Shown here: positions 20,962-64,000 of the stretch, piece after piece | How positions within the stretch are numbered: position 1 is the stretch's first letter | Layout: every line of letters starts with the position of its first letter | Origin: Candidatus Latescibacterota bacterium | GTDB taxonomy: Bacteria > Latescibacterota > UBA2968 | Assembly: GCA_965208125.1 (NCBI GenBank) | Contig: OZ242320.1 | Location: 5,664,001-5,728,000, forward strand | Reading direction: 5' to 3' | DNA length: 64,000 nucleotides | Translations under genes and position numbers: made by a program | Notes under the pieces: generated by a model | Told to the model about the DNA's origin: nothing | Seen by the model: the letters and a program-made list of their open reading frames with translations, nothing else | The model's database searches: none

Positions 20962-20989
20962 TTTCAATTCTTTCAAAGCCGAGAATCAG

Positions 20990-36996: not shown

Positions 36997-39097
36997 CAAT
37001 TTAGATATTAAAAACCTAGTGAAGGAACTATTTCCTAGCAGCGTAAAGGACCCGGGGTATCAAAGGTATTTGGAAGGATTCATTGAAGAAGGATTAAAAA
37101 CTGAAAATTCTTATAAATTTCAACATCTTACATCTATTGTCATTGAAAATTTCAAGTGCATCGGCGATGCCGTAACTATTCCCATTCGTCCCATCACATT
37201 GTTATTTGGAAAAAATAGTTCGGGTAAATCAACAGTGTTACAGGCACTGCGTTATGGCTACGAAATGTGGCAAGGTAAATTAGCCAGCCATATATCAATG
37301 AGCGGTGGCTTTAATATTGACTTTAGTGATTTTCCCGCCCTGGTACATGGCCATGATCTGGACCGAAAAATTCGAATTCGCTTCGAATATACCTTTGATT
37401 TCGATACCCAATATCCTACTTATGAATTTAGCGAAGTGGTAACAGGTTGGAAAGATGGACAAGGCAATATCGTGTCATGGTTATGGGGAATGAGCAAGAA
37501 TAACGAGGAACTGATTCGTTGTTCCTTTGATAGCTTAGAAGCCCACACACATGATACGATATTTGGCTCAAATGGTGAGGAATTGATCCGTTTGAAAGAA
37601 AAAAAAGGGTTCCCAAAGTTTTCTCCAGAAATATATGTGAATACTAATAATATTCATAAGGATTCTATAGATTTCCAGTTAAATATAATTAGGTATAGAT
37701 TACTGCATCAGCAAGAACTTACAGAATCCTCTAGCGATATTCAACATTTGGGACCATTCCGTGAAGTGCCCCAAACGCTTGATAACTCATGGGAAAAAGG
37801 AATTGGAGCCTGGAATACTCTCGCTCGTGATCCGGAATTGCTAAAAGAAACAAATCGCTATATGAGAGATATTTTGAAACTTGGATACACCATCAGTGAT
37901 ATCACACTTGATAGTCAAGAAAAGTCAAATATCACGCTTGATATGAATAGTGAAATCATGGAAAAGTTAAAAAAAATTTGCAATTCTGAAGACATAAAAG
38001 TTGATGAATTAAAAAAACAGGTTTATGATCCTCTTGTGCTATTATCTCGCCAACCTGTGATTAAACTTCATGACGAAAATGAGAATATAGAAGTTGGTCT
38101 CTCAGATATTGGTGTTGGTATCGCCCAAATTATTCCCGTTGTGGTGGGGACATTAGACGATAGCCACGGAATTTTTTTAGTTGAACAGCCAGAGCTTCAC
38201 ATTCATCCTGCTGTTCAGGTGGCTTTGGGCGATGTATTCATTGACAGCATAAAAACTAAGCAACTGTTTTTAGATGATTCTCAATTCATACAAGAATGGG
38301 CTCATTCTTTTCTAGCCGGAGACGAGACCTATAAGAAATTTTACTCCAAGTTTATCTCCAAGCTACAAAACAGTCCGGACTTCCTTGAAAAGAAAAAAAA
38401 TATCAATAACCCTGCTTCTTTTTATAATATTTCCTCTAAGATTAGCGGCCTCATAATAGACAGCATAAAAATTGGGCAAGAGTGTTTTGATTTTTCTCTA
38501 TCTTTGCAAGAGGCTTCAGATAAATTTCTCTCCAAAATGGAAAATAGCTTTGATTTTTCTCTATCTTTGCAAGAGGATTCAGATAAACTTCTCTCCAAGA
38601 TAGAAAACAGCAAGGAAGACCTACTTGATATTAAAGGACGGACATTTAGAAAGGAAGATCTACTTGAAAGCGTCAAAAATATCAATGATCCTGCCAATGA
38701 TCCTGCTTTTTATTATGAGATTATTGACCTCATAAAAGATAGCCATCAGGATATTCTAATAGTTGCCGAGGGGTTAAACAAAAAACAGAGAGAATTAGGT
38801 AAAAAGCGTATAAAAGATCTCTTAAGTATGGGTAAAAATAGTAATCGCACTCTACTCATTGAAACGCATTCAGAGCACCTGTTACTGAGGATTATGAGGC
38901 GGATGCGTGAGACGTTTGAAGACAGAATTGAAGAAAATCGATTTCCTGTAACCCCCGATGATATTGCCGTGCTATTTGTCGAAAGGCATGATTCGCAAAC
39001 AATCATACGGGAAATGCCTGTTAATGAACGTGGAGAATTGGTAAAAGCCTGGCCTGGCGGTTTTTTCGAGGAAGATATAGAAGAGGTATTTGCTTAA
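36992..39097 (+). CDS. ABC/AAA_15-21-type ATPase with C-terminal DUF3696-like domain (defence-associated), copy 1
   Basis: IENFK, Walker A GKNSSGKS, signature DIGVGIAQ, Walker B FLVEQPELHIHP, H-loop IETHSEH, tail G.....WPGGFF. Confidence 0.88.
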   Translation: MANLDIKNLVKELFPSSVKDPGYQRYLEGFIEEGLKTENSYKFQHLTSIVIENFKCIGDAVTIPIRPITLLFGKNSSGKSTVLQALRYGYEMWQGKLASHISMSGGFNIDFSDFPALVHGHDLDRKIRIRFEYTFDFDTQYPTYEFSEVVTGWKDGQGNIVSWLWGMSKNNEELIRCSFDSLEAHTHDTIFGSNGEELIRLKEKKGFPKFSPEIYVNTNNIHKDSIDFQLNIIRYRLLHQQELTESSSDIQHLGPFREVPQTLDNSWEKGIGAWNTLARDPELLKETNRYMRDILKLGYTISDITLDSQEKSNITLDMNSEIMEKLKKICNSEDIKVDELKKQVYDPLVLLSRQPVIKLHDENENIEVGLSDIGVGIAQIIPVVVGTLDDSHGIFLVEQPELHIHPAVQVALGDVFIDSIKTKQLFLDDSQFIQEWAHSFLAGDETYKKFYSKFISKLQNSPDFLEKKKNINNPASFYNISSKISGLIIDSIKIGQECFDFSLSLQEASDKFLSKMENSFDFSLSLQEDSDKLLSKIENSKEDLLDIKGRTFRKEDLLESVKNINDPANDPAFYYEIIDLIKDSHQDILIVAEGLNKKQRELGKKRIKDLLSMGKNSNRTLLIETHSEHLLLRIMRRMRETFEDRIEENRFPVTPDDIAVLFVERHDSQTIIREMPVNERGELVKAWPGGFFEEDIEEVFA
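38486..38611 (+). repeat. 63-bp tandem duplication inside the ATPase insert
   Basis: FDFSLSLQEASDKFLSKMENS / FDFSLSLQEDSDKLLSKIENS; copies start at 38486 and 38549. Confidence 0.9.
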
Positions 39098-40987: not shown

Positions 40988-41140
40988 AAGAATTTCTTGA
41001 CAACCTGATGTGTTGTTTGAAAATTTGAAAACAGGCCGACCTATTCCAAAGTGCAGAAGGTTGGATATTCCAAAAATTTGTCAACTTCAAGCGTTTCAGA
41101 TGAGCCTGAACGCTTTCACCAACTTATGAGAAAGCATGGC
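40983..41140 (+). repeat. Conserved ~150-bp leader, copy 2
   Basis: Homologous to 36842-36996; ends at the ATPase start codon. Confidence 0.8.
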
Positions 41141-42953
41141 TATTACATCTATCACCATCGAAAACTTCAAGGGCATTGGCGATGCCGTGACGGTTCCTAT
41201 CCGTCCCATCACCTTGTTATTTGGCAAAAACAACGCGGGTAAGTCAACGGTACTACAGGCGTTGCACTATATGCGCGAAGTATGTGAACATGCAGGAGCC
41301 GATCCAGATCGCACACACATGGGTGGAGACTATATTGACCTGGGTGGTTTTCGTTCTCTGGTGCATCTTCATGAGTTGAATCGGAAAATTCGGATCCGAA
41401 TTGAATTTGACCTGACATCCGAAGAATCGAAAATTTTGAATCGAATTTTGGAACATGTGACCAATCCGGATTCCGCGTGGATAGAAGTGGTAACAAGTTG
41501 GAATGCAGAAGAACATAATGTTTATACTGAGTCATACGGATATGGACTTAATGGAACCGAGTGGTTGTATCTCAGGCTACTAAAAGAAAGACCCGAAGAA
41601 AAACCCAGCGATATGATTGTCTTAAATGGTACAGAATGGCAGCGATTAAATAATACTGCGTTTCTAAATATTAATCACCCGGACATTAAGGAGACAATAG
41701 CAGATGATTATCAAAAAAAAATAAATCCTGACATACTGCGCCGGTTGCCGGAAATTGCACTCAAAGAATTGCGTAATATACGATATTTGGGACCCATGCG
41801 AAAAATTCCCCCACGCGATTATCGCCCGCAACAAACGCCCGAAGAATCGCTATGGGCAGAGGGATTAGAGGCCTGGAATACACTTGGAAGAGATCCTCAA
41901 TTGGTGAAAAAAATAAACCGCTATATGCAAGATGTTTTGAAAATGGGATGTAGTATTAGCCGGCAGGAAATCATCTCGCTTGATGAGGATGGCGAGATCA
42001 TGAAAAATCTAAAAAAAATTAGCAACTCTAAAGACTTCAATGTTGATGAGTTAAAAAAACAAGTTTATGATCCACTCGAACAATTACCCCGCCAAATTAG
42101 AATGAAACTCTATAATAAAGAAAATGCTATCGACTTGGATTCCGCAGATGTTGGTCTGGGTATTCCCCAAGTTATTCCAGTTTTGGTGGGTGCTTTGCAC
42201 AGCGGCCGACCAGATCCTAAGCGGTTTTATTTGACTAAACCACCGGGAGGTTTTTTTGCGGTTGAACAGCCAGAACTTCACTTGCACCCCGCCGCTCAAG
42301 TGGCTTTGGGTGATGTGTTTATAGACTGCATAAAATACAACCGTGATCATCCTATTCGAGTGGCTTTAGAAAGGATTATAGAATTTATAGAAAATAGCGA
42401 TACCGAGATTGTGGCCTTCAAAGAGTTCATTGAGAGTATGGGAGAAAACTGCGATCATCCGGATATTCAAGAGGAAGCGAATAAGATCATCGCTAATCTA
42501 AAAAGCAGCAATTATCCGGATATTCGAGAGGCTTTCGTCAGATTCATTGAAAGTATAAGAGAGAACCGCGATCATCCGGATATTCAAGCAGCTATCGAAG
42601 AATACATGAAAAAAATACAAAATCGTAATCCTGATATTCAAGTAGCTTTTGAGGAGTTCTCTGATAGTAGAAAAAACAGTAGCTATCGCACCATGCTCAT
42701 TGAAACACATTCTGAGCACTTGCTATTGCGATTGCTACGACGTGTGCGTGAAACAACCCGTCGTAGCAGACGCCAGACCACCGAGTTAGAACAGACAGTT
42801 CACGAATTGACACCTAATGATCTTTCTGTGGTCTATGTTCGACCCACGCCAGCAGGAGTTAAATTCACTCCACTCACTGTAACGAATGATGGTGATTTTG
42901 ATGCACCATGGCCAGAAGGCTTTTTCGAAGAACGTGATTCGGAGTGGTATTAA
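41136..42953 (+). CDS. ABC/AAA_15-21-type ATPase with DUF3696-like tail, copy 2
   Basis: GKNNAGKS, DVGLGIPQ, FAVEQPELHLHP, IETHSEH, DGDF...WPEGFF. Shares GDAVT.PIRPITLLFGKN and VDELKKQVYDPL with copy 1. Confidence 0.88.
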   Translation: MAITSITIENFKGIGDAVTVPIRPITLLFGKNNAGKSTVLQALHYMREVCEHAGADPDRTHMGGDYIDLGGFRSLVHLHELNRKIRIRIEFDLTSEESKILNRILEHVTNPDSAWIEVVTSWNAEEHNVYTESYGYGLNGTEWLYLRLLKERPEEKPSDMIVLNGTEWQRLNNTAFLNINHPDIKETIADDYQKKINPDILRRLPEIALKELRNIRYLGPMRKIPPRDYRPQQTPEESLWAEGLEAWNTLGRDPQLVKKINRYMQDVLKMGCSISRQEIISLDEDGEIMKNLKKISNSKDFNVDELKKQVYDPLEQLPRQIRMKLYNKENAIDLDSADVGLGIPQVIPVLVGALHSGRPDPKRFYLTKPPGGFFAVEQPELHLHPAAQVALGDVFIDCIKYNRDHPIRVALERIIEFIENSDTEIVAFKEFIESMGENCDHPDIQEEANKIIANLKSSNYPDIREAFVRFIESIRENRDHPDIQAAIEEYMKKIQNRNPDIQVAFEEFSDSRKNSSYRTMLIETHSEHLLLRLLRRVRETTRRSRRQTTELEQTVHELTPNDLSVVYVRPTPAGVKFTPLTVTNDGDFDAPWPEGFFEERDSEWY

Positions 42954-51348: not shown

Positions 51349-52290
51349 CTATCGGTCTATCTGCGGATCAGAGGGCGTGTCGCCGAGTTCTTCAACTTTG
51401 ATGAGAGTGCGATAAATAGTCAGGCGAAGGCCGCGGTCGGGTGGGCTGGCAAATTCGAGAGGCTGGTCCTGCAGTGAAATCGAACTGCCACGCTGTATCT
51501 CCACTTGAAAGCGGTCATAAGCCAGCCAGCGTTGCTGCCGCCCCATGGGAAGCACACCAGCAAAAACCCCGCGGTCATCGGCAGTAATGGATAGATGGGT
51601 GTTTTCCCTTGCAACGCCGGAAAGGATCATGAATTCTCCTTCGGCAATGACGCCGGGAATGGACAAATTATATGTGGAGAGCACAGCGAGCGTTGGTTGG
51701 GCAGATGGCGTCTCCTGATTTTCCGATAGAGGTTGCGATGGTATAACGGACTCTGTATTGTCTCGCAGTTGCATCTCTTGTACGGATTTCGCGCTATCCT
51801 GTATTTCAGACGGCATCTCCTCTGCAGAAATGCTTATTTGTTCAGTTGAGATAACCGATTCCGTACTATCTGGTATTGGAATTGGTGATGTGGTTATATC
51901 GAGCGGCGCGGTGAGCGGTGTTTCTTCACGCGAGTTGAGGATGATAATCACCACTGCAATCACCGCGAATGCGAGTAATGAGATAAATATTGCGCTGCGG
52001 TTTATCCCGCGTTCTGGAGAGGACGGTACTGGGGGACGCTCACGCGGTAGCGCAACACTTCTTTCAAAGCGAAACAGGATATCCTGAACGTCGAGGTTGA
52101 GTTCTTGGGCATATGTCTTGAGAAACAAACGCGCGTAAGCTACGGGCAATAAATTGAATTGTCCCGCTTCGAGCACTTTGATAAACTCGGGATTGATCCG
52201 CGTGTGTTCATAAACATCACCGATACTCAAACCCAAATTTTCGCGCTGCGTTTTGAGTAATTCACCAATGTCTTGTTTTTCATCTGTCAT
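51349..52290 (-). CDS. rodZ: RodZ-like HTH membrane protein
   Basis: IGELLK..RE..GLS......TRI....I..LE.G.F..LP..YAR.FLK.YA..L; single TM; acidic linker. Confidence 0.8.
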   Translation of the reverse strand: MTDEKQDIGELLKTQRENLGLSIGDVYEHTRINPEFIKVLEAGQFNLLPVAYARLFLKTYAQELNLDVQDILFRFERSVALPRERPPVPSSPERGINRSAIFISLLAFAVIAVVIIILNSREETPLTAPLDITTSPIPIPDSTESVISTEQISISAEEMPSEIQDSAKSVQEMQLRDNTESVIPSQPLSENQETPSAQPTLAVLSTYNLSIPGVIAEGEFMILSGVARENTHLSITADDRGVFAGVLPMGRQQRWLAYDRFQVEIQRGSSISLQDQPLEFASPPDRGLRLTIYRTLIKVEELGDTPSDPQIDR

Positions 52291-52918
52291 AGATGGTTGT
52301 ATTCCCGTTATTTGTTAGATCTATTTCGGGTATAATCGCCCAAAGCGATTGCCCGACCAGACGGTGATAAAGGCTCCAAAAGCGCGCAAGCGGCAAGCCC
52401 ACCACATTGTAGAAACAACCGGATATAGATTGAATAAAGGCAGATGCACGCCCCTGAGCGCCATAAGCACCGGCTTTGTCCATAGAATCTCCAGTGGCGA
52501 CATAGCGCGAAATATCCTCCGATGAGAGCACGCGCATCGTGACGTGGGTAGTTGCAACATCTGTGAGAGTCTGTCCGGTTTCCGTATCTGTGAGAGCCAG
52601 CCCTGTATAGACCTGATGGGTTTTTCCCGAAAGTTGCGCCAGCATGTCTTTGGCGTGTTTGGCGTCATTCGGTTTCCCGAAAATCGCATTTTCCAATGCC
52701 ACAACTGTATCGGCTCCCAAAACGAGCGCGTGGTCAAAACGATGGATAACCGCCTGTGTTTTGCGCTGCGCGATTTCCCGCACATATTCAGCGGGTGGCA
52801 AAATGGTATCCAAAGACTCATTCGCATTGCTCGGCGCAATCTCAAACGGAATATCCAACAAACGCAACAAACGCGCACGCCTGGGCGAGGCTGACGCGAG
52901 AATCAGTCTCTTCTTCAT
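52280..52918 (-). CDS. maf: Maf-family nucleoside triphosphate pyrophosphatase
   Basis: [34 protein letters not shown]. Confidence 0.95.
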
Positions 52919-53358
52919 ATCTCTGAGTCAATCATCAATGTAACGGGGCCTGTATTGTGAATTTCGACCTGCATATACGCGCCAAAAACGCCAGTTTCAG
53001 TGTGAATGCCAAGCGTGCGGAGATGCTGGACAAATCGCTCGTACATGGATTTGGCAATATCTGGTGGCGCAGCCCGATTAAAACTCGGACGGCGGCCTTT
53101 GCGGGTGTCGGCGTGCAGGGTAAATTGCGAAACCACCAGCGCCTGCCCCCCCGTGTCGAGCAGGGACCTGTTCATTTTGCCCTGACTGTCCTCAAAAATT
53201 CTCAAATTTGCACATTTCTCAGCAACATATTCCATATCCGGCAGGCCATCGGTATCGCTAATACCCAGCAGAATCAAAAGACCGCGATCAATTTGTCCAA
53301 CAATTTGTTCTTCAACGCGAACCGTTGCCCTGCATACCCGCTGAATCAATGCCCGCAC
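52915..53358 (-). CDS. dtd: D-aminoacyl-tRNA deacylase
   Basis: [38 protein letters not shown] start at 53358 with RBS GGAGG. Confidence 0.95.
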
Positions 53359-53392
53359 GCTACCCTCCAATGCTAAAAATGCCTGTACCATT

Positions 53393-53429
53393 TATAACCT
53401 ATTTGTGGCATGTGTGCAAGGTGAAAGAT
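53393..53429 (-). promoter_or_regulatory. Putative sigma70 promoter for dtd; left copy of a 37-bp direct repeat
   Basis: Minus strand TTGCAC-17 bp-TATAAA; 30/37 identical to 62566-62602. Confidence 0.65.
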
Positions 53430-53667
53430 ATAAGAGACGCGGCAAAACAGGCTGGCACCATCCCGGCGCAATCGCAAATAACAGGAACATAACGAGCCAA
53501 ACGGCTTGTCTTTTATTAAAGATATTCATATTTTCGTACAGGTTATCAATCGCAATTCTCGACAAAGATTCGCAAAAATGGTAGTCCATGAGAACATCTG
53601 GGCCGCCCCGGTTCTACTCGCAGGGCGACTGATGATCCCCATCAGCCTGTACTGAAAGAGAAAAGAG

Positions 53668-54864
53668 ATGAGTCGAGGAAAAAGCTTACTCCTGGCCAGT
53701 GCCATCCTTCTCATATCCTTGAGTGTTGCCTACCTTATGGTCTGGCTGAAACCCGAGCCGGAAATCCGGCCTCTTACTTCTCGGGCACCTTTCGCAGCCA
53801 CGGCTCCCGCGGTGGTCGGCACTGGTGCAATTCCCGTGTACGGGGCTGGGACGGTTCGACCTGTTGCAGAGATAGATGTCGCTGCCGAAATCAATGGTAA
53901 GGTTGTTTGGGTAGATCCGGCCTTTCAGAGTGGCGGACGAGTCCGAAAAGGGCAGGTTCTCTTCCGCATTGATGACGCCGACTACCGCAACAGAGTTCAG
54001 CAAGCCCGCGCCAACGTGGCCGCGCAGCATGTCGCACTCCTCCGGGCGAATGAAGAAGCTCAGATCGCACGCGCTGAGTACGCGCAATACAGACGTGGCC
54101 AAACAGATATAGCTGGGGCCAATCCCCTTGCGCTGTGGGAACCACAACTCGAGGCAGCCCGCGCCGCGGTGGTCAGAGATAGTGCTGTGCTCGCCGCTGC
54201 CGAGTTGGCTTTGGCACGTACAAAAGTCCGCGCGCCTTTCAGAGGCGTCGTGCAGGCAGAATCGATAGATATGGGGCAGTTCGTAGTGGCTGGTCAGAGT
54301 GTGGGGCGAATTTACGCGACCGACGCAGTAGAGGTGGTAGTTCCCCTCTCCGACGCCAACGCAGTTCTCATTCCCGGCCTATGGGATCTGGAAGCTGGCG
54401 ACGGAAACAGGCGAGTCGGGGCCCGCATCATTGCTGAATACGGCGACAGAAGCTACACCTGGGAGGGCTATGTAGATCGAGCGGAAGCATCCCTGGACGA
54501 ACAGACGCGCACCATCAACGTCATCGTACGCGTCCCAAATCCTTTTACAAGCGGCACCCGATTCGAAGCGGCAAGCGCGGATCCTGGCCCGCCCCTTCTC
54601 GTGGGCAAATTCGCAGAAGTGCGAATTGAGGGAATCATCCCAGACCAGTACTTCATCCTGCGGCGATCAGCACTCAGACCGGGCAACGAGGTCTGGGCAG
54701 TGCGCGATGACTCATTATTGACCATCGTCCCGGTGCGCGTCCTTCAGCGTTCCGATGATAAGGTGTTCGTAACCGGCACGCTGAAAACCGGTCAAGCGGT
54801 CGTCATAGGCGGGATTCAGGTCGCAACCGAAGGCATGGTGGTGCGGATCGGAGATGATCCATGA
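53668..54864 (+). CDS. RND efflux periplasmic adaptor (MFP)
   Basis: N-terminal TM; GTVRP, AEINGKV, V.KGQVLF.ID, TKVRAPF.G.V, DEQTRT. Confidence 0.92.
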   Translation: MSRGKSLLLASAILLISLSVAYLMVWLKPEPEIRPLTSRAPFAATAPAVVGTGAIPVYGAGTVRPVAEIDVAAEINGKVVWVDPAFQSGGRVRKGQVLFRIDDADYRNRVQQARANVAAQHVALLRANEEAQIARAEYAQYRRGQTDIAGANPLALWEPQLEAARAAVVRDSAVLAAAELALARTKVRAPFRGVVQAESIDMGQFVVAGQSVGRIYATDAVEVVVPLSDANAVLIPGLWDLEAGDGNRRVGARIIAEYGDRSYTWEGYVDRAEASLDEQTRTINVIVRVPNPFTSGTRFEAASADPGPPLLVGKFAEVRIEGIIPDQYFILRRSALRPGNEVWAVRDDSLLTIVPVRVLQRSDDKVFVTGTLKTGQAVVIGGIQVATEGMVVRIGDDP

Positions 54865-57800
54865 ACCGGGAAGAAGGTTCCGCACGGGAACAGCGTGGTC
54901 CCATAGCTTATATGGCTGGTAACAGTGTAGCCGCCAATCTACTGATGTGGGCCATTATCGCCGCCGGGCTGGTGTCGCTGACCGGACTCGACCGGGAAGC
55001 GTGGCCCACCACTCCCTTCTACCATATTGAAGTGTCGATGGCCTATCCCGGCGCCACACCAGAAGAGGTGGAGGAGTCCATCGTCGTCAAGATCGAAGAC
55101 CAGGTCAGTGGATTGGATGACGTGAAGGCGGTCAAGTCCGTATCGGCCCCGGGTATGGCATCCGTGCGGGTTCAAATGGATTTCGATACGGACATGGCTC
55201 GGGCGTTGAACGATATCGAGTCTGCCGTCAATCGCATACAGTCTTTCCCGGCCAGTGCCGAACGTCCCAGTTTCAGGGAGATGACCAACCGCATGAGCAT
55301 GATGCGGCTCATTGTTTATGGCGATGTGCCCGAGCGTGCGCTGAAGGAATTGGCGTATCAGATCGAAGATGAACTCACAACACTCCCCTCCGTGTCCCAG
55401 GTCGAAGTCAGTGGTATTCGGAAATACGAGATCTCTATCGAGGTACCGCTTCATCGGCTAAGAGCACTTGGACTCACACTCACCGATATAGCCAACACCA
55501 TTCGTCGCAGTTCCCTGGACTTATCTGCCGGCAGTATCAATACCCGGGAATCCCAGGTGCGGGTCCGGACTCTCGGTCAGAACTACGACCAAAAGGATTT
55601 CGAAGAGATCGTCCTTCTCAGTGGTCGTGACGGCACGGTCCTGCGCCTTGGAGATATCGCCGAGGTTCGCGACGGTTTTCAGGAAGCCGACCTGATCATC
55701 CGGCACCAGAACCATCCCGGGGTATTCGTGGAGATCTACCGCGCCGATGGTGAGCAAGTGATGGATGTCGCCACGACCGTCCGACAGCACCTGGCAAACG
55801 AAGTGATCCCTTCCCTGCCGGACGGTGTGGGCGTCACCATGTGGAATGACGAATCCCAGGTCTATGAGGAACGCGCCGATCTTCTCCTCAAGAACGGGAT
55901 CCTGGGCCTGTTGCTGGTGCTGATCGCACTCAGCCTGTTTCTCGAAATCCGGCTCGCGCTTTGGGTTGCCGTGGGCCTCGCCGTTTCGGGAATCGGCGCC
56001 CTCGCCATCATGATGGCATTCGACGTGGCGATCAACACCATCAGCCTGTTTTCCTTTGTCCTCGCCATAGGAATCATCGTCGACGATGCCATCGTCGTGG
56101 CCGAGCACATTCAATACGAACGCAAGCGGGGAACACCCGGGGTCACGGCCGCGATCCGCGGCGTACGGCGGATCAAGGTGCCGTTGACGTTCGCAGTTCT
56201 GACGTCGGTGGTGGCCTTCGTCCCGTTGCTGTTCATTCCCGGCGGCGTCGGTGAGGTGTGGCGGGCCCTGCCGATCATCATGATCGCCATGCTGCTGGTT
56301 TCCCTGGTCGAATCGCTGCTGGTGCTGCCCAACCACCTGTCCCACCTGCACGGCCCGGAGTGGGTGCCGGCCAATGCCTTCGACCGGTTCTTCGCGCGGC
56401 TCCAGGGGCGCGTTGACGCGCTGCTGAACAGGTTCGTCCAAGGCCCGCTGGATCGGGCCCTGCAGTTCGCCACCGACCAGCCCGCGGTGACGATGTCGGG
56501 GGCAGTGGGAATGCTCGTGCTGAGCATCTCCCTGTTGCCCGCGGGGATCGTTCCTACCACGCTGGCCGCTGACGTGGAGGGGGATATCGCGACGGTCGTC
56601 CTGGAGATGCCCGATGGGGCGACCGCTCCGAGGACGTACGAAGTGGCGCAGGAACTGGAGGCCGCAGGCCACCGGGTCATCGAACGACTCTCGCGCGGCC
56701 GGCCCGGGGATGCGCCACCGCTACTGACCGGCGTAACGGTGACCGTCGGACAGGGCTCGAGACTCGCGGGCGGGCTCAATCCGGAGCCGACCCTCAATCC
56801 GCAAGCCAACATCGCCACCATTGAGTTCAAACTCCTGGGCGCCCAACAGAGAGAAATCTCCACCGGAGAGGTCGTGCAGGCATGGCGGGAGGAAGTGGGG
56901 GTACTGCCCTACGTACGCGGCATCACCTTCAGCGGCGAGGTCTTCGACTTGGGCAACCCGGTGGAGGCCGTGTTGTCGCATCCGGACCCGGAGCGCCTTG
57001 TCCGGATTGCAGACTCCGTGGTGGATGGACTCCGCGGGGTGGGAGGCGTCTATGACATACGTTCGGATCACTCCCCGGGCATCCCGGAGGTTCAACTGGA
57101 GCTGCGGCCGGAAGCGCGAACCCTCGGTCTCACACTCCACGACCTGGCCGGGCAGGCACGGGCGGCGTTCTTCGGCGCAGAGGCCGTTCGGGTGCAGCGC
57201 GACCGGGAAGAGGTCCGGGTCTATGTGCGCCTGCCCTCCGATGAACGAAAATCCATCACCGATGTCGAAGGATACCTGCTCCGTACGCCGGGCGGGGCCG
57301 AGGTCCCGGTCATGAGTGTGGCCTCCCTGAACCCGGGGGTGTCGCCGCCGGCCATTCGGCGGAAGGACGGCCAGCGCGTCGTCACGGTCACTGCGGACGT
57401 GGATGCTTCGGTGATTTCAGGCGACGAAGCCAACGACATCCTGGCCAATTCGATCCTCGCGGATCTGACCGCCCTGCACCCGGACCTGACATACAGCTTC
57501 GGAGGGGAACAACAACAGCAGCTCGAATCCCTGGATGCGCTGTATCGCGGATTTGCGATTGCCATGCTCCTGATCTTCGCGCTGCTCGCCATCCCCCTCC
57601 GATCCTATACAAAGCCGTTCATCATCATGGCCGTCATCCCCTTCGGGTTCATCGGAGTGATCCTGGGTCACTGGGTCCTGGGAGTAGCCCTGAGTGCCGT
57701 ATCTTTCATGGGTATCTTCGGCCTGAGTGGGGTGGTCGTGAACGATTCCCTGGTCATGATCGATTTCATCGATCAGAGAATCGGGGAAGGCACCTTGGCA

Positions 57801-58055
57801 AGGACGGCGATCGTGGAGGGCGCCAAGGGGCGCTTTCGTCCGATCATGCTCACTTCCGTGACTACGTTCCTCGGCTTCACTCCCCTTATTCTGGAACGTG
57901 CCATCCAAGCCCAGTTCCTGATCCCCTTTGCCGCCTCGCTCGGTTGCGGCATTCTCTTTACTACGGCTATACTCATGATGATCGTTCCCGCACTTTACAC
58001 CATCCATCTGCGTCTGATTGCTTCGCGGGGCCGTTCCGGCGCTGGTACCGGGTAA
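54861..58055 (+). CDS. RND efflux permease (AcrB/AcrD/AcrF family)
   Basis: YPGATPEEVE, GIIVDDAIVVAE, GVVVNDS, RFRPIMLTS.TT. Confidence 0.95.
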   Translation: MNREEGSAREQRGPIAYMAGNSVAANLLMWAIIAAGLVSLTGLDREAWPTTPFYHIEVSMAYPGATPEEVEESIVVKIEDQVSGLDDVKAVKSVSAPGMASVRVQMDFDTDMARALNDIESAVNRIQSFPASAERPSFREMTNRMSMMRLIVYGDVPERALKELAYQIEDELTTLPSVSQVEVSGIRKYEISIEVPLHRLRALGLTLTDIANTIRRSSLDLSAGSINTRESQVRVRTLGQNYDQKDFEEIVLLSGRDGTVLRLGDIAEVRDGFQEADLIIRHQNHPGVFVEIYRADGEQVMDVATTVRQHLANEVIPSLPDGVGVTMWNDESQVYEERADLLLKNGILGLLLVLIALSLFLEIRLALWVAVGLAVSGIGALAIMMAFDVAINTISLFSFVLAIGIIVDDAIVVAEHIQYERKRGTPGVTAAIRGVRRIKVPLTFAVLTSVVAFVPLLFIPGGVGEVWRALPIIMIAMLLVSLVESLLVLPNHLSHLHGPEWVPANAFDRFFARLQGRVDALLNRFVQGPLDRALQFATDQPAVTMSGAVGMLVLSISLLPAGIVPTTLAADVEGDIATVVLEMPDGATAPRTYEVAQELEAAGHRVIERLSRGRPGDAPPLLTGVTVTVGQGSRLAGGLNPEPTLNPQANIATIEFKLLGAQQREISTGEVVQAWREEVGVLPYVRGITFSGEVFDLGNPVEAVLSHPDPERLVRIADSVVDGLRGVGGVYDIRSDHSPGIPEVQLELRPEARTLGLTLHDLAGQARAAFFGAEAVRVQRDREEVRVYVRLPSDERKSITDVEGYLLRTPGGAEVPVMSVASLNPGVSPPAIRRKDGQRVVTVTADVDASVISGDEANDILANSILADLTALHPDLTYSFGGEQQQQLESLDALYRGFAIAMLLIFALLAIPLRSYTKPFIIMAVIPFGFIGVILGHWVLGVALSAVSFMGIFGLSGVVVNDSLVMIDFIDQRIGEGTLARTAIVEGAKGRFRPIMLTSVTTFLGFTPLILERAIQAQFLIPFAASLGCGILFTTAILMMIVPALYTIHLRLIASRGRSGAGTG

Positions 58056-58086
58056 TGCACTTCATGATGCAGGGAGGCAGAAACCG

Positions 58087-60120
58087 ATGGCTAATACTAC
58101 CGAGGGTTTGACGACCCAATCGCTAAGTCTCACCGAAGAGCTCATCCTGATGCTCCTCAACGAGGAGACTGGCTACTTTCACCAGGTACCCGGCTGGCAT
58201 TTGAACTGCGCCGTGGTCGGTGCCGTGCTCGCAGAGCTTTCACTCAGATCGCGCATCGACACGGACCTGGAATCCCTATTCCTCGTGGACGAGTCGGAAA
58301 CGGGAAGACCTACCCTGGACCCCATTCTGAAAGAAATCGCAGCCGAATCTGTTCAACGGAACGCCCAGTACTGGATCGAACGGCTTGCTCCCCGTGCGGA
58401 ATCGATCATTGATTCGGTTCTGGACCGCCTGGTTGACCTGAAGATCCTGGAATATCACGACGGTGAATTCTGGACACTGGCTCCTACCGTCTGGCGTGGG
58501 GAACTGTCCAGCAAGTCGGAAGAGGGCACTGCAGGCCAGTTCATAAAAACGCGGATCAGCAGGATCATCTTCACCGACGAGATTCCCGATCCGAGAGATG
58601 TCATCATTATCTGCCTCGTCAATACCTGCGACGTCTTTCGTTTCATATTCCAGCTCGACGACGAGGCGGAGGAGCGCATCGAGTTCATCTGCAAGATGGA
58701 TCTGATCGGCCGCTCCCTGGCCTCTGCGGTCTCTCAGAACCTCGCCGGCCCAGCCCTTCGACGTCCTGCCCTTGCCAGGAAAATTCCGACGGTTTCGCTG
58801 CCCAAGCTGCTGCTGAACCCGCATAGTCGAGACGGCAACCTGAACGCGCTCTTCGGGAACCTTGCGGAGGAGTACGGTCCGGTGTTCCAGATCCGCCCTC
58901 CCTTCTCGAAGCCCATGATCTTCCTGGCCGGACTCGAGACAAACCGCTGGGTGCACAAGCGCGGGCGCATGTACCTGAGAGCCAGAGACTACTTCAGCGA
59001 CTTCGAGAAGGTCTACGGCGCGTCCGGCGTCCTGCCCGCCCTGGACGGAGCCGATCACTTCCGGCTTCGCCAGTCCCTGTCGCCCGCCTATTCTGCCGTG
59101 AGGCTGGGAGGGCAGCTAGACCAGCTCTACAATCAGGGGCGCAAATACATGGCGAGCTTGACGGTTGGGGACTCATACCGCGCCACGTCCATGTGCCGGG
59201 AGATGGTGAACGCCCAGCTCTCCCCACTGTTCATCGGCGTCGATACCCAGGACCTCATGGACGACCTGATGGCGTACAAGGAACGGGCCCTCAGCGTGCA
59301 CGTCGCCAAGCTCCTGCCCAGATTCACGCTGAACACCCCGGGCATGAGACGTCGGGCGAAAGCCCTGGACACACTGATGCAGCGGGTCCAGGACATCCAT
59401 ACCCCCGCCCAACGGGCGGACAGCCCGCGGGACCTGGTGGACGATTACCTCAGCCTGCACGCGAGCGACCCGCAGTTTCTCCCGGAGTCCAACCTGCTGT
59501 TCTCCTTTTCCGCGGCCTTGATTGCCAGCGTGTACCTCGGCGATACGTTCAGCCTCGTAGTCTACGCCATGGCGTCGCAGCCCGACCTCTACGCCAGAAT
59601 CCAGGCCGAAGCAGATGCCCTGTTCGCCAAGGGAGACCCCGAGAGAGAGGATTTCACCCCCGCCAACATTGACGTTACCCACCGCTTCCTCATGGAGTGC
59701 ATGCGCATGTACCCGATCGTCTCCATGTCCATTCGGAACGTGATGAATACGTGCGTGGTCGAGGACTACGAGCTGCCCATGGGGGAACGGATCCACATCG
59801 CCATGACCGCCACGCATTACATGAGCGAGGTCTTTCCCGACCCCTACAAGTTCGACATCGACCGCTACCTGCCGTCGCGCCATGAACACCGAAGCCCCGG
59901 GTACGCCCCGTACGGGCTGGGCACGCACAAGTGTCTCGGCACCCGGTGGATGGAGCTGCACCTGGCGGCCAACTTGCTGATGCTGGCGCACTACTTCACG
60001 ATTGAGGTGTCGCCAGCGCAGTACAAGCATAAGCTCCGTTTCAGTCCGTTCCCGTCGCTGAAACCGAGCAAGAAGCTGAAGTTCCGCATCTCCCAGCAGA
60101 GACGGGAGCTGTTCACCTGA
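58087..60120 (+). CDS. GPP34 (Golgi phosphoprotein 3)-like domain fused to cytochrome P450
   Basis: N-terminus LSLTEELILMLLN....G...GAVLAELSL..RI (GPP34-like); P450 ECMRMYP (ExxR), FDIDRY, YGLGTHKCLG heme motif. Start at ATG 58087 with RBS GGGAGG. Confidence 0.85.
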   Translation: MANTTEGLTTQSLSLTEELILMLLNEETGYFHQVPGWHLNCAVVGAVLAELSLRSRIDTDLESLFLVDESETGRPTLDPILKEIAAESVQRNAQYWIERLAPRAESIIDSVLDRLVDLKILEYHDGEFWTLAPTVWRGELSSKSEEGTAGQFIKTRISRIIFTDEIPDPRDVIIICLVNTCDVFRFIFQLDDEAEERIEFICKMDLIGRSLASAVSQNLAGPALRRPALARKIPTVSLPKLLLNPHSRDGNLNALFGNLAEEYGPVFQIRPPFSKPMIFLAGLETNRWVHKRGRMYLRARDYFSDFEKVYGASGVLPALDGADHFRLRQSLSPAYSAVRLGGQLDQLYNQGRKYMASLTVGDSYRATSMCREMVNAQLSPLFIGVDTQDLMDDLMAYKERALSVHVAKLLPRFTLNTPGMRRRAKALDTLMQRVQDIHTPAQRADSPRDLVDDYLSLHASDPQFLPESNLLFSFSAALIASVYLGDTFSLVVYAMASQPDLYARIQAEADALFAKGDPEREDFTPANIDVTHRFLMECMRMYPIVSMSIRNVMNTCVVEDYELPMGERIHIAMTATHYMSEVFPDPYKFDIDRYLPSRHEHRSPGYAPYGLGTHKCLGTRWMELHLAANLLMLAHYFTIEVSPAQYKHKLRFSPFPSLKPSKKLKFRISQQRRELFT

Positions 60121-60159
60121 CGACTTGCTCCTTGTGGAGCCAGGGGAAAACACCACGAA

Positions 60160-61194
60160 ATGCGACTGTGCAAACTGTCAAGAGAGTTGAGAGATGCGTA
60201 CCGGGGATCGGGCGTCGCACGTCGAGTGCAGCACTTCGACGGCTGGCTCGACCGGGCGGTGCTGGAGCCCGGTGGCGCGGGCGGGTACGATCACACGGAA
60301 ACAGTGAAAGACTATTACGACCTTTGTAGCGGGTTCATGGTGTGGGGCTGGGGCCAGTCCCTGCACTTCGCACCCCTCACGCCTCATGAGAGTCTGGAGG
60401 AGTCCAAGGTCCGGCATCAGCGGCTGATGATTTCCAAGTTGGAGCTGCAACAGGGTATGACGGTGGTCGACGTTGGTTGTGGAGTCGGCGCCCCCATGCG
60501 CCGCGTCGTCCGTGAGGCTGGTGTCAGGGTTGTAGGAATCAACATCAATGAGATCCAGTTGGAAGAGGCGAAGAGGTTGAACGCCGAGGCGGGGCTTGAT
60601 CACATGGTCGATTTCGAGACGTGCAGCTTCATGGACATGAGCACCATTGAGGACGACACCTTCGACCGGGGTTATGCCATAGAGTCAACGTGCCATGCAC
60701 CGGACAAGCAACGCGCCTTCGAAGAGGTATTCCGCGTGCTGAAACCCGGTGCCCTGTTCTGGGGGCAGGAAATGTGTCTGACGGGCAAGTTCGATCCGAA
60801 GGACGACCGGCATCGGGCCATCAAGGAGGATCTCAGGCGCGGCATTGCGCTGAGGGACATCGCCACCTTCGGGGAAGTGAATCACGCGCTCGGAGCCACG
60901 GGATTCCAAGTCATGGAAGGGATGGACCGGGCGATCCAGGAAGGACCCTCCACACCTTGGTATCAACCCATGGAGAGTCGCCATGGGACGGTCGGAAATG
61001 CCTTGCGCAGGCTTCCGTGGGGCCGTAAAGCGGTCATCACAGGATCGAAGCTGGCTGAAGTACTGCGGCTCTTTCCGAAGGGTTCCGCGGAAGTCATCCG
61101 ACTCCTAGATCGGACCGCGGAGGCTTATATCGCGGGCGGCAAGGCGGGTATCTTTACGCCGCTGTACTGTTTCTTGGCTCGCAAGCCTCTTTAG
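60160..61194 (+). CDS. Sterol 24-C-methyltransferase (SMT/Erg6-like)
   Basis: YYDL...F..WGWGQSLHFA, VDVGCGVGAPMR, YAIESTCHAP, VLKPG, WYQP, GGK.GIFTP......RKP. Confidence 0.9.
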   Translation: MRLCKLSRELRDAYRGSGVARRVQHFDGWLDRAVLEPGGAGGYDHTETVKDYYDLCSGFMVWGWGQSLHFAPLTPHESLEESKVRHQRLMISKLELQQGMTVVDVGCGVGAPMRRVVREAGVRVVGININEIQLEEAKRLNAEAGLDHMVDFETCSFMDMSTIEDDTFDRGYAIESTCHAPDKQRAFEEVFRVLKPGALFWGQEMCLTGKFDPKDDRHRAIKEDLRRGIALRDIATFGEVNHALGATGFQVMEGMDRAIQEGPSTPWYQPMESRHGTVGNALRRLPWGRKAVITGSKLAEVLRLFPKGSAEVIRLLDRTAEAYIAGGKAGIFTPLYCFLARKPL

Positions 61195-61385
61195 GCCCGC
61201 TTGGCGCGCCTTCGCGCGGGACCCTCAAGTCAGGGCCTCTCCGGAACCGCCAGCCGTATATGATGCGCCCGTAATAGTTGAACGAACGCTTTGCTGCGGG
61301 ATCGTCAAAATGGCCATTCGCCGCGGCATTGTCCCTGTCTCCCTGTTGCTTTAGCCTCTTATCTTGCGCCCTCATCGGCTACCGC

Positions 61386-62480
61386 CTAATCAGAGATCGA
61401 ATCCCCACTTCCCTTCGCAATCGTCGGATCGGGATAGAACTGCCGGCAATAGCGGCGGTATTTCCCTATAGGTCCGTCTGCCCGACACAGCCGGGGGGGA
61501 GTTCGATACCGCTTCTGTTCCCAGATCACCATATCCTGCAGGACATCCCGTTTCTGTTGTGACATCAAAATGCGATTCATCAGCCTGTGGCGCAGCTTCA
61601 TCGGCAGAAATCCCAGACCTGAGATGAATCGCCGGGGCCTGCGGATTTCCCGCAGTTGGCTGACCAGTGCAAGATCGATGAGGGTGCCGTCAATGGGCGT
61701 TGCGAGTACCCACAACCTCGCATCCATACCGATCGTCTTCTCGTGGATTTCGACGAAGGAGTAGCCCAGTCCATAGACATGGGTGATAGCCGAAGGTTCG
61801 TACACGAGGTCCTTTACACCCAGGATCCTGCGAACGCGTTTGAAGTCGAAGCAACTCTTCAAATAAGCACCATCTACCGTTACCGAACCGATCGGAGTCA
61901 CATTGTCGTAACCATGCACATAGCGCAGGTGTCCCAGATCCACAGAGTTCTCAGTTGTTTCCTGGGGATGTCCACGGAATCGGAGTATGTTGAATCTCAG
62001 TTCACACCACTCTTGTCCAGTGGCAGGCTCAGTCGGCAACTCCCACTGCGGCGGTCTGCCTCCACTCCCGAACCAGGCGAAGACCATGCCGAGTATCTCT
62101 CGCGTCTCATATACTTTCAGTTTCGCGGCTCTGGGTGCCGGAGCATTCGGAGTCGCAACGCATTGGCCAGTCACATCGTACTCAAACCCGTGAAATGGAC
62201 AGACGAGGCGACCGTTGCACACCTGGCCGCCGACCTCCGGCCCCATGTGCGAGCCCAGGTGCGGACATACCGCGTCGGCCACGCAGACGCGACCCGTATC
62301 GTCGCACCAGACGACGATTTCCTCGCCCAACCACGTCTTCTCGATCAGTTTCTCTCGCAGAATGGATTCGCGGCTTGCGACGAAATACCACCCCTCGGGG
62401 AACGCTGGTAGCGCATCAGCGCCATTCATGACTGGTCGATCAGTACTTCTGAGTAAGTCTGCTGATTCCGTAAAAGACAT
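61386..62480 (-). CDS. Rieske non-heme iron oxygenase/desaturase (Neverland/DAF-36/KshA-like)
   Basis: CPHLGSH...CPFHG Rieske motif; ENSVDLGHLRYVH iron motif; D..IWE.K.Y...P.L...DGPI..YRR...QFY tail. Confidence 0.88.
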   Translation of the reverse strand: MSFTESADLLRSTDRPVMNGADALPAFPEGWYFVASRESILREKLIEKTWLGEEIVVWCDDTGRVCVADAVCPHLGSHMGPEVGGQVCNGRLVCPFHGFEYDVTGQCVATPNAPAPRAAKLKVYETREILGMVFAWFGSGGRPPQWELPTEPATGQEWCELRFNILRFRGHPQETTENSVDLGHLRYVHGYDNVTPIGSVTVDGAYLKSCFDFKRVRRILGVKDLVYEPSAITHVYGLGYSFVEIHEKTIGMDARLWVLATPIDGTLIDLALVSQLREIRRPRRFISGLGFLPMKLRHRLMNRILMSQQKRDVLQDMVIWEQKRYRTPPRLCRADGPIGKYRRYCRQFYPDPTIAKGSGDSISD

Positions 62481-62565
62481 AAAGATCTCATTCCTGGAAG
62501 TTTCCCAAAGACGCCCTGAACAGCGCCGATGTCACGAGATATTCCCGTGCAAAATTACCAAAATC

Positions 62566-62602
62566 TATAAGCTATTTACTGCAGGTGGACAAGGTGAAAG
62601 AT
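62566..62602 (-). promoter_or_regulatory. Putative sigma70 promoter upstream of the Rieske gene; right copy of the 37-bp direct repeat
   Basis: Minus strand TTGTCC-17 bp-TATAGA, beginning 1 nt after the lptD-like stop codon. Confidence 0.6.
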
Positions 62603-62603
62603 T

Positions 62604-64000
62604 TTATATCCCAAACCCTCCGCGTCGGTGCTCAAATTTTATTTGCGGGATGTCCTTAATATTGATCTTAAAAAAGAAACCCTTATTAAAACCTGCGGGA
62701 TACCACGAAAACCGAGCTTCCCAACAGTGGAGATCGCGGTAAAGCGATAGGCTTTGCGCCGAGATTTTGGCATCGGGCAGAACATCAATATTGATCGAAT
62801 AGTCAATTCTTATGAATTGGCGAGGATTGATGCCAATATCTGCTTTGATCCAGGATGTTTTGCTCGTTGTATTGCCGAATCGCCGCATCGCAATATAATG
62901 AGAGAGATTGAATCGCCACGGCTGGCTGGCACCGCCAAAATCGCTGTACAAATCGCGCTCAAAGCCAAAATCTGCGCCATATCCCCCCCTGTATCCACCG
63001 CCATATCCAGCATCATATCCAGTATCATACCCAGGATCATATCCATCGGGAAGAGCGGACTGGATAACCATATTGTCTCGTCCACCTTGACCACCGGAAA
63101 AACGAAAATTGGAGGTAATCGTCAGGTTCTGCAGACGCGGATGCAAAAGCGACCGCTGGCCTGTGCTGTCATAGAGCGTATGGGTCATCGCAATGCGGAC
63201 ATCCACGCGACGATCGGGTTTGAGAGACGCGCTGGCGCGAAGCGGACGCCATTTTTGTCTCGGCGCGTCAAAATCGTATCCCGTTGACAGATTGAGCGTC
63301 GCCAGAGTAAAACGACGCACATCGTCGTCGCGCTGGGTTTTGAGTTCAAAAGTATTGCCGATATTAAAATTTATGCTGCGTCTGGCATCATCCCATCTGC
63401 GATTGCCCCCAAAACCCATAGTCCCCTGAAATATGCTTCCCGATTGGTTGTAATTGAAATTCATCCGGGGCTGAAAGCGATGCCGAATGCCGCGTAACCG
63501 GCCGATTTGCGGTTGGAAAATGCCGTATAATGTCGTGCCCGAAGTCAGTGTCGCATTGTAAGACGTGCGTCGGGTTGTCGAATCGGTATCGCTATATATA
63601 AACTCTTCGCCAAAATTAAAGCTCGGTGTGAGATTGAGCCACCCCATAGGACGGTGTTGGCTGTTGACTGTGACGCGGTTTTGAAGAGAGACGCGCTCCG
63701 TATTGGGCGCTGGATCGGGGTTGCGCGCAAAATTATTGGACAGCGTGCTCGAAAAACCGTAGTAAAAGGCGCGATACCACGGTCCTGTAACAGATGTCAT
63801 TTCATTGTTGCCAAATATGCGGCGTCTATTTTGTCTAAAGCTGAGACGGGGAAAACCTTGAAAGCTATTGTTTTTTGTCCTCAGGTCGCGGTAATACGTC
63901 AAACTGCCATCAATGCTGCGTCCGGATTCTGTCCAACGTTTGTCAAAAGAAAAGCTGGACCTCAGTTGCCGATTGAGATAGCGATAAAGATTATTGCTAT
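62604..64000 (-). CDS. lptD: Putative LPS-assembly protein LptD-like barrel (5'-truncated by window edge)
   Basis: Frame stays open from 63902 to the window end; TTLYG.F, IRH...P, RDLHCWE..F.W.P.G....F.F.I.IK motif typical of FCB-group LptD-like proteins. Confidence 0.75.
   Translation of the reverse strand, partial: SNNLYRYLNRQLRSSFSFDKRWTESGRSIDGSLTYYRDLRTKNNSFQGFPRLSFRQNRRRIFGNNEMTSVTGPWYRAFYYGFSSTLSNNFARNPDPAPNTERVSLQNRVTVNSQHRPMGWLNLTPSFNFGEEFIYSDTDSTTRRTSYNATLTSGTTLYGIFQPQIGRLRGIRHRFQPRMNFNYNQSGSIFQGTMGFGGNRRWDDARRSINFNIGNTFELKTQRDDDVRRFTLATLNLSTGYDFDAPRQKWRPLRASASLKPDRRVDVRIAMTHTLYDSTGQRSLLHPRLQNLTITSNFRFSGGQGGRDNMVIQSALPDGYDPGYDTGYDAGYGGGYRGGYGADFGFERDLYSDFGGASQPWRFNLSHYIAMRRFGNTTSKTSWIKADIGINPRQFIRIDYSINIDVLPDAKISAQSLSLYRDLHCWEARFSWYPAGFNKGFFFKINIKDIPQIKFEHRRGGFGI

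Follow-up and report, generated by a model that had tools for sequence, protein, structure and literature searches.

Sterol methyltransferase (SMT) genes have been described from bacteria that live in sponges. The main text of Brown et al. (2023; PMC10070321) reports that bacterial SMTs from sponge metagenomes methylate sterols in vitro and reads them as parts of de novo pathways, and that of Kelly et al. (2022; PMC9531527) reports SMT, ERG24, CYP51, LSS and FDFT1 genes as enriched in metagenome-assembled genomes (MAGs) of Ircinia. A separate line of work concerns GPP34_L proteins, which join a GPP34 domain to a cytochrome P450. According to the main text of Ferreira et al. (2025; PMC11706023), GPP34 + P450 proteins are exclusive to sponge symbionts (656/663 long forms), GPP34 genes are expressed in 45 of 107 MAGs, and the proteins are proposed to modulate phagocytosis; the words ‘sterol’ and ‘methyltransferase’ appear nowhere in that main text. 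Here we describe a locus where the two lines meet. In a stretch of 64,000 nucleotides from a Candidatus Latescibacterota bacterium (contig OZ242320.1, positions 5,664,001 to 5,728,000), hereafter the window, a divergent SMT-family gene lies with genes for a GPP34-P450 fusion, a KshA_C-type Rieske oxygenase and a two-gene pump from the superfamily of resistance-nodulation-division (RND) transporters. This five-gene block is an accessory genomic island, and it appears to carry a lipid-tailoring cassette that is passed on horizontally and is characteristic of bacteria associated with sponges.

The window SMT shares with the published bacterial SMTs (PMC10070321; Brown and Welander 2025; PMC9531527), as their main texts describe them, the Sterol_MT_C family, an association with sponges and a distribution over many phyla. 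In some genomes the published genes cluster with oxidosqualene cyclase (OSC), CYP51, ERG24 and sdmA-like genes, again according to the main texts, as do the genes in the fuller of our related loci. The published SMTs are given a de novo reading in those texts, with an OSC accompanying 13 of 24 tested SMTs, whereas the window SMT is found mostly in cyclase-free genomes. It also differs in belonging to a distinct long-stem clade, in its altered Region I, and in travelling with a GPP34-P450, a KshA_C Rieske enzyme and a pump. The two Brown papers name tested SMTs in their main texts, and none of these lies on the contigs of the 80 metagenome loci that we kept (of 90 found). The GPP34-P450 of the window resembles GPP34_L in its two-domain architecture, its habitat and its spread over many phyla. 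The main text of PMC11706023 proposes binding of phosphatidylinositol 4-phosphate (PI4P) and escape from phagocytosis, whereas here the fusion has SMT, Rieske and sterol-cluster genes as neighbors, which points to lipid tailoring.

Three further systems invite comparison. The sterol and hopanoid transporters BstA and HpnN (Zhai et al. 2024, PMC10942540) are likewise RND-superfamily transporters beside sterol genes, and the MMPL transporters of related Nitrospirales and Chloroflexota loci belong to their Pfam family; the window pump, in contrast, is of the AcrB/MexB type (ACR_tran) and has an adaptor, a tripartite efflux design. The Coxiella sterol reductase Stmp1 (PMC8787468) is also a eukaryote-like sterol-modifying enzyme of an OSC-less bacterium in a sterol-rich host, but the enzymes, the host and the lifestyle differ, and what we describe is a multi-gene mobile cassette common to many phyla. 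The Rieske protein has in common with KshA, a 3-ketosteroid 9-alpha-hydroxylase, and with the cholesterol 7-desaturases Neverland/DAF-36 a CxH...CxxH center and a KshA_C catalytic domain that includes the C-terminal block; unlike the situation of KshA, no KshB-type reductase gene lies beside it and no steroid catabolic genes were seen. Among the main texts searched, we found no paper that joins the GPP34-P450, sterol/SMT and sponge-symbiont pump threads, and none on a cyclase-less mobile form of the cassette. The parts have been published separately; what is new is the cyclase-less mobile form with its pump, and the link of the GPP34-P450 to sterol genes.

An accessory island between dtd and an lptD-like gene

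The block covers about 9 kb (53392-62603 of the window) and is inserted between two chromosomal genes, both on the minus strand and both outside the island: on the left dtd, for D-aminoacyl-tRNA deacylase (52915-53391; Pfam Tyr_Deacylase, 191 bits, and TIGR00256), and on the right an lptD-like outer-membrane gene (62604-63902; LptD_2, 86 bits). We call it a genomic island because the site is empty in congeners, its GC content deviates and a repeat flanks it. Of 20 further congeneric genomes, 7 have the SMT gene (40 relatives searched). We compared the dtd region in five congeners that lack it. In three (G063, G060 and G045), dtd and the lptD-like gene lie ~100-140 bp apart with no island gene in between; in G054 the two genes are not adjacent, and in G062 lptD is outside the stretch compared. 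A repeat search identified an imperfect 40-nt direct repeat at the island boundaries (left copy 53390-53429, right copy 62563-62602; 32/40 identical, 80%; spacing 9173). The repeat has only these two copies in the whole genome when searched at up to 8 mismatches, and the empty site of G063 has a single copy.

The island has a GC content of 0.598, compared with 0.512 for the 5.75-Mb genome, which is a single contig and 96% complete. By 2-kb bins, GC is 0.585-0.634 from 54001 to 60000 and 0.578 at 60001-62000, against 0.504-0.509 in the neighboring bins (52001-54000 and 62001-64000). An earlier, sequence-only reading of this DNA had described five genes in a GC-richer block and had taken the block for an island. 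The bin contrast confirms the former, the empty sites, the repeat and the GC content support the latter, and Pfam and NCBIfam matches agree with the gene families that it named. All five reading frames are intact. They fill the block, and neither an integrase, a transposase nor any other mobility domain was found among them. When the island was scanned for promoters and terminators, no excess over shuffled sequence emerged: no promoter was predicted, and 8 terminator-like sites compare with 7.1 expected.

Domain architecture of the island proteins

The SMT-family gene (60160-61194, plus strand) starts 40 nt after the GPP34-P450 gene and encodes a divergent enzyme of 344 amino acids that matches Sterol_MT_C (PF08498) at 56.5 bits (cut-off 21.7) and Methyltransf_11 at 64 bits. 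In our tree, SMTs of the window type form a monophyletic, well-supported long-stem clade inside the SMT family (SH-aLRT 100 for the wider clade). The window SMT is ~40% identical to rice SMT1-like proteins and equally so to canonical SMTs of sponge Acidimicrobiia; searched against solved structures, it matched generic methyltransferases only and no close SMT structure. The Brown and Welander 2025 preprint lists H90, D125, G129, P133 and E195 as essential in the yeast SMT. All five are invariant in 81 of 81 clade sequences, the window’s included, in a residue numbering anchored on motifs and not on an alignment with the yeast protein. The preprint also finds GWGXXFHF (Region I) and DXGXGXXGP (Region II), F89 included, conserved in all functional SMTs. 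The window SMT does not carry this canonical pair: its Region I, FMVWGWGQSLHF, departs from GWGXXFHF, and beyond the substitutions shared across its clade (considered below) it has S78 and A132, the latter replacing G132 in the window sequence and 12 others. The claim that this SMT has all eukaryote-type signature regions was thus too strong: the essential residues are kept, while Region I is altered and position 132 is an alanine.

The gene upstream (58087-60120, plus strand) encodes the GPP34-cytochrome P450 fusion, a GPP34_L-type protein of 677 amino acids in which GPP34 (100 bits) and p450 (119 bits) are matched in one frame. This frame opens at a TTG at 58018, and its likely start is the ATG at 58087, 32 nt past the permease gene. 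The translation has the heme-cysteine loop YGLGTHKCLG and an ExxR motif (ECMR), forty aligned homologues have a mean column identity of 67%, and the AF2 model of the protein has a mean pLDDT of 83. Against solved CYP51 the fusion reaches 67 bits over its C-terminal half only, and it is not a CYP51. Foldseek neighbors of the model are CYP184A1, Methylococcus CYP51, P450 BM3 and CYP46A1; searched with the whole fusion model, Foldseek returned P450 folds only, the GPP34 part being unmatched among the matches listed. The window’s genome has just two P450 genes, both of them GPP34 fusions, and four GPP34 genes in total.

The other GPP34 genes of this genome deserve a description of their own. The second fusion (655 amino acids; L168 5003-11733, G000:C1 ~995,000-1,001,700) is 35% identical to the island’s and stands in a row with genes for a class I methyltransferase, a GFO/IDH/MocA oxidoreductase, a PhyH dioxygenase and a sulfotransferase, with an inositol-monophosphatase-family gene nearby. 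This row may be a second lipid-tailoring cluster, possibly with sulfated products. The two remaining GPP34 genes stand alone (L185 6472-7143 and L186 5904-6668; G000:C1 ~3.199 Mb and ~4.079 Mb), one between two PhyH-family dioxygenase genes and the other flanked by ThuA and nitroreductase genes. Across this genome, GPP34 domains repeatedly have oxygenases for neighbors.

The Rieske gene (61386-62480, minus strand) is convergent with the SMT gene and encodes a KshA_C-type Rieske non-heme iron oxygenase of 364 amino acids (Rieske PF00355, 60 bits; KshA_C PF19298, 81 bits). Its translation shows CPHLGS...CPFHG and DLGHLRYVH, which we take to be Rieske-family motifs. The best solved relative is KshA at 85 bits, in an alignment of only ~170 + 40 residues, and the nearest Atlas clusters carry the automatic name cholesterol 7-desaturase. 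The protein is not SdmA (30.6 bits against the SdmA model, cut-off 600). It may be a 7-desaturase, a 9-alpha-hydroxylase or neither. A C-terminal motif of the Neverland/DAF-36 type had been noted in this protein. The block is indeed present, but because it aligns to KshA residues 303-341 we regard it as a feature of KshA_C and not as specific to Neverland.

In seven related loci (L047, L060, L065, L025, L034, L036 and L056), matches to the Rieske protein are partial (10-63% of its length) despite ample flanking sequence. This suggests decay or rearrangement of the Rieske gene in some lineages.

The pump consists of a periplasmic adaptor, or membrane fusion protein (53668-54864, plus strand; HlyD_3, and TIGR01730 at 148 bits), and an AcrB/MexB-type (HAE1-like) RND permease of 1064 amino acids (54861-58055, plus strand; ACR_tran, 530 bits over 1011/1021 profile positions), whose genes share a 4-nt overlap. 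The permease has only distant solved relatives, the nearest being MdtB, MexB and AcrB at 195-236 bits. No OEP (outer-membrane efflux protein) gene is present in the window’s island; one precedes the adaptor gene in 13 of 80 related loci. The AcrB-type permease is 71-95% identical in the 37 of these 80 loci that have it, and it is bound to lineage: it is found in 13/13 Latescibacterota and 11/13 Gemmatimonadota loci and in 0/10 Nitrospirota and 0/10 Chloroflexota loci. The latter two have, in place of the AcrB-type pump, MMPL transporters with matches to the sterol-sensing domain. The adaptor is 86-89% identical in L009 and L011 only, and 55-62% identical with saturated synonymous divergence (dS) in the other loci.

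The two closest relatives of the locus (L002 and L005, SMT 96-97% identical, same insertion site) lack the adaptor and have the permease alone. In loci outside L009 and L011, the adaptor is just 55-62% identical while the permease reaches 84-95%. Because the adaptor is missing in the closest relatives and divergent elsewhere despite a conserved permease, we consider the island a mosaic.

The cassette is shared among bacteria of many phyla

In a species-representative genome collection, at least 551 of 600 matched stretches encode an SMT relative, and the best 80 were used for locus counts. These 80 relatives are 75-97% identical and, by their record titles, come from MAGs of at least ten named phyla (Latescibacterota, Gemmatimonadota, Nitrospirota, Chloroflexota, Acidobacteriota, Nitrospinota, Binatota, Actinomycetota, Verrucomicrobiota and Rhodothermota), with 12 unassigned. 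Neighbors were counted by tblastn within 10 kb of the SMT, presence being set at 80% coverage or more, because simple open reading frame calls mis-assigned strands in the GC-rich loci. Counted in this way, a GPP34-P450 is near the SMT in 74 of 80 loci, a Rieske gene in 60 (it is less than 80% covered in 9 and without a match in 11), and an AcrB-type permease in 37. Where at least 8 kb is available on both sides (n=64), the P450 is present in 61 loci, the Rieske gene in 50, and SMT, P450 and Rieske together in 49. The sequence-only reading had staked its interpretation on whether the genes co-occur elsewhere, and they do so widely.

In 29 of 80 loci (e.g. L006 6443-7822), the SMT or Rieske gene has next to it a gene for a 459-residue FAD amine-oxidase-family protein; this gene is absent from the window. 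We considered whether it could be HpnE and rejected this, as there was no HpnE match at E 1e-10 or better and only weak N-terminal matches to protoporphyrinogen oxidase.

In JGI and whole-genome-shotgun metagenomes, 90 of 210 matched stretches are SMT relatives, and the 80 loci kept come from ten contig-name prefixes. Two of these (JGIcombinedJ30088 and LXNI) are the prefixes of Brown and Welander’s Aplysina aerophoba and Sarcotragus foetidus metagenomes. Four metatranscriptomic runs, each from a different study and of which two bear the label sponge metagenome, contain contigs that cover the genes for the permease, the P450 and the SMT at 92-100% identity, and one 361-nt piece from an RNA library is identical to the window. 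The guess that the window comes from a sponge symbiont fits both the Aplysina- and Sarcotragus-labelled prefixes and the labels of the RNA runs. Most of the Rieske gene is uncovered in three of the four runs, which is no evidence that these parts are silent.

In one contig, of run X2, the ends of the SMT and Rieske genes are joined, with 166 nt of the spacer between them skipped (window 61226-61393). Because of this gap, we attribute the contig to a relative with a shorter SMT-Rieske spacer.

The SMT tree of 81 sequences is shallow, and the phylum labels need 17 changes on it, where the minimum is 9. Synonymous divergence is more telling than these label changes. The window differs from the copies in Acidobacteriota, Verrucomicrobiota and Rhodothermota by a dS of 0.37-1.2, well short of saturation, and omega is 0.05-0.32 for all island genes, comparisons among cyclase-less carriers included. 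Unsaturated dS across phyla together with such omega values, which reflect purifying selection, indicates that functional genes were transferred between phyla recently. Exchange is also apparent within the genus. Compared with L002 and L005, dS is 0.06-0.07 for the P450 and SMT genes, 0.14 for the permease and 0.32-0.37 for the Rieske gene, against 0.28-0.35 for the chromosomal flanks; since the P450 and SMT values fall below those of the flanks, the core was exchanged after the species split. Across loci, GC ranges over 0.54-0.68 in the island and 0.505-0.697 in the flanks.

Sterol and squalene genes in carrier genomes

The window’s genome has no match to SQHop_cyclase_C (PF13243), SE (PF08491) or ERG4_ERG24 (PF01222), and no P450 outside the GPP34 fusions, hence no CYP51. 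As a control on PF01222, the model had no match in any of 14 control genomes and gave 250 bits at a related locus. The sequence-only reading had remarked that no oxidosqualene cyclase lies in the window and had proposed that the genome be checked for osc and sqe; the check is negative, and the remark holds for the whole 5.75-Mb genome.

The cyclase domain is unevenly distributed over 44 carrier genomes: 29 have no match, 4 have short weak matches only and 10 have strong matches, and 33 of the 44 are without a full-length cyclase. We considered the ten strong PF13243 carriers as possible holders of an OSC and rejected this reading of the matches, as all six proteins tested, from five of the ten genomes, are squalene-hopene cyclases above the NCBIfam equivalog cut-off. 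The real OSC-like genes are found among the weaker PF13243 matches, in frames of ~1200 amino acids. Four of the 44 carriers have a frame of ~1150-1270 amino acids, and three of those four also have a hopene cyclase. Both long frames that we examined encode a squalene epoxidase fused to a cyclase, for which 2,3-oxidosqualene cyclase is the best model at 717-727 bits (cut-off 851), compared with 265-272 bits for the hopene cyclase model.

In three Nitrospirales genomes, the module is contiguous with such an epoxidase-OSC fusion and with CYP51, ERG24 and an SdmA-like gene. In one of them (G023), an MMPL transporter lies just upstream of the fusion (osq_cycl, 717 bits), which is followed directly by CYP51, an ERG4/ERG24 reductase and an SdmA-like Rieske gene (406 bits); a few kb further lie an outer-membrane barrel, the KshA_C Rieske gene, the SMT and the GPP34-P450. 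The CYP51 of the G023/L041 cluster matches the solved Methylococcus CYP51 at 346 bits, and the SdmA-like gene of the Nitrospirales clusters (406-413 bits) is separate from the KshA_C Rieske gene. In another genome (G011), a GPP34-P450 48% identical to the window’s lies directly behind the epoxidase-OSC fusion. Because orthologues of the module are contiguous with de novo sterol genes in Nitrospirales, we tie the module to sterols, and the sterol link drawn in the sequence-only reading comes out strengthened. As judged from gene order, the three-enzyme module would be the tailoring end of sterol clusters where such clusters exist, and elsewhere it stands alone.

Possible functions of the cassette

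We favor, at a probability of roughly 0.55, a reading in which the cassette tailors sterols obtained from outside the cell and exports the products. Its core would be the SMT-family methyltransferase, the GPP34-P450 and the KshA/Neverland-like Rieske oxygenase, joined here to an AcrB-type pump with its adaptor. Because the host genome cannot cyclise squalene or oxidosqualene, the sterols would come from the sponge or from sterol-producing neighbors and would partition into the inner membrane. At its cytoplasmic face they may undergo side-chain methylation and oxidation or desaturation, with the GPP34 domain docking the P450 on the membrane or passing lipid to it, and the pump would deliver the products to the outer membrane or to the exterior. 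What the enzymes act on, which reaction each performs, what GPP34 does and which way the pump transports are all inferred from sequence. The related interpretation in the sequence-only reading, that host or dietary sterols are alkylated, desaturated or oxidized and re-exported, is partly supported. A wider version of our proposal is rather doubtful in our estimation: that the cassette, with a lineage-specific lipid transporter, is a mobile kit for editing host sterols, with which symbionts of at least ten phyla, most of them incapable of making sterols, remodel and re-release the sterols of hosts or neighbors.

Several observations weigh against this reading. Across the clade, SMT Region I has M81 (81/81), V82 (78/81) and L89 (81/81) where canonical SMTs have Y, E and F, and according to Brown and Welander, 7 of 11 SMTs inactive on desmosterol and 24-methylenecholesterol deviate at conserved positions; in those authors’ view, the inactive SMTs may need other substrates. 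The P450 is without a close characterized relative, and its top Foldseek matches mix fatty-acid and sterol P450s. The island genes include no uptake route and no outer-membrane channel, and AcrB-type pumps expel compounds. The island also lacks a redox partner (small ferredoxin and reductase genes were not searched exhaustively across the window) and a gene for its own mobility. Phylum labels of MAGs follow their submitters and some bins may be wrong; the RNA-library contigs may stem from carried-over DNA, and contigs cannot rank genes. Lastly, the window’s genome has hpnC, hpnD and hpnE above their equivalog cut-offs (L174 5920-9085; G000:C1 ~1.240-1.243 Mb), and an SQS_PSY gene is present in 44 of 44 carriers, where 8 of 8 single copies tested fit squalene synthase best, below its cut-off.

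These squalene genes are also the starting point for an alternative in which the cassette acts on a lipid of the bacterium’s own, be it HpnCDE-derived squalene or a different acyclic isoprenoid. In that case the SMT-like enzyme would methylate the double bond of a terminal isoprene unit, the chain would be oxidized by the oxygenases, and the product would be placed in the envelope by the pump. As all carriers probably make squalene, an endogenous acyclic triterpene substrate is conceivable, and squalene in genomes that mostly lack a full-length cyclase, met by an SMT with a changed sterol-binding region throughout its clade, leaves room for one. SMT-like enzymes of Botryococcus methylate squalene and botryococcene. 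We nevertheless hold this alternative to be unlikely. Orthologous modules sit inside sterol clusters with an OSC fusion, CYP51, ERG24 and an SdmA-like gene, the nearest solved relative of the Rieske enzyme acts on the steroid nucleus, and bacteria often have SQS_PSY genes (8 of 14 control genomes do). The Nitrospirales clusters also lend something to a third possibility, namely that the island is what remains of a de novo sterol cluster after transfer without the cyclase genes, and is functionless here. Truncation or loss of the Rieske gene in several loci would suit such a fragment. Set against five intact frames, omega values of 0.05-0.32 that hold among cyclase-less carriers too, retention of the module by 33 carriers (out of 44) that lack a cyclase, and presence of its sequence in RNA libraries, functionlessness seems highly improbable.

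The GPP34-P450 may instead be chiefly a host-interaction factor that binds PI4P and disturbs phagosome maturation, its neighbors being unrelated passengers or enzymes that modify host membrane lipids for evasion rather than for bacterial sterol metabolism. The sponge-symbiont exclusivity, expression and phagocytosis proposal in the main text of Ferreira et al. (2025; PMC11706023) speak for such a role, as do the four GPP34 genes of the window’s genome. A P450 needs heme and an electron-transfer partner, however, and would make an improbable secreted effector; the fusion lies near SMT-clade genes in 74 of 80 loci and beside an epoxidase-OSC fusion in G011, and other GPP34 genes adjoin oxygenases (PhyH) and a sulfotransferase, which argues for metabolism. 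We consider a role chiefly in host interaction quite unlikely.

Tailoring of exogenous sterols would have consequences beyond this genome. Side-chain alkylated steranes are used as evidence of early animals, an argument that hinges on which organisms alkylate sterols. If the SMT is active on sterols, counts of cyclase genes would underestimate the microbes that shape the sponge sterol pool. Were the wider host-sterol editing proposal to hold, cyclase-less bacteria would feed into the unconventional sterols of sponges and hence into steranes read as animal biomarkers; GPP34_L would be a lipid-docking sterol oxygenase and not a phagosome effector, and the altered Region I would mean non-canonical methylation, for example of a side-chain carbon that is not C-24, or of an atypical sterol or terpenoid of sponges. 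The proposal offers a concrete biochemical role that can be tested for the GPP34-P450 family, whose members have so far been known only as markers of symbiosis with sponges, their part in phagocytosis being speculative. The cassette is also a clear example of genes shared recently inside a single host-associated community.

Other features of the window

Outside the island, the window encodes a 2180-residue protein with fibronectin-III, cadherin and CARDB repeats (1696-8238) and a 710-residue WD40-repeat protein (8271-10403), eukaryote-like repeat proteins of a kind reported as enriched in sponge symbionts. A 773-residue protein (20909-23230) combines a patatin-like phospholipase domain with an Omp85-type barrel. 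Between 36000 and 44000, GC drops to 0.40-0.44 from ~0.51, and two genes for AAA_15/AAA_21 ATPases (36992-39097 and 41136-42953) lie in this stretch, which may be another acquired region, of a defense type.

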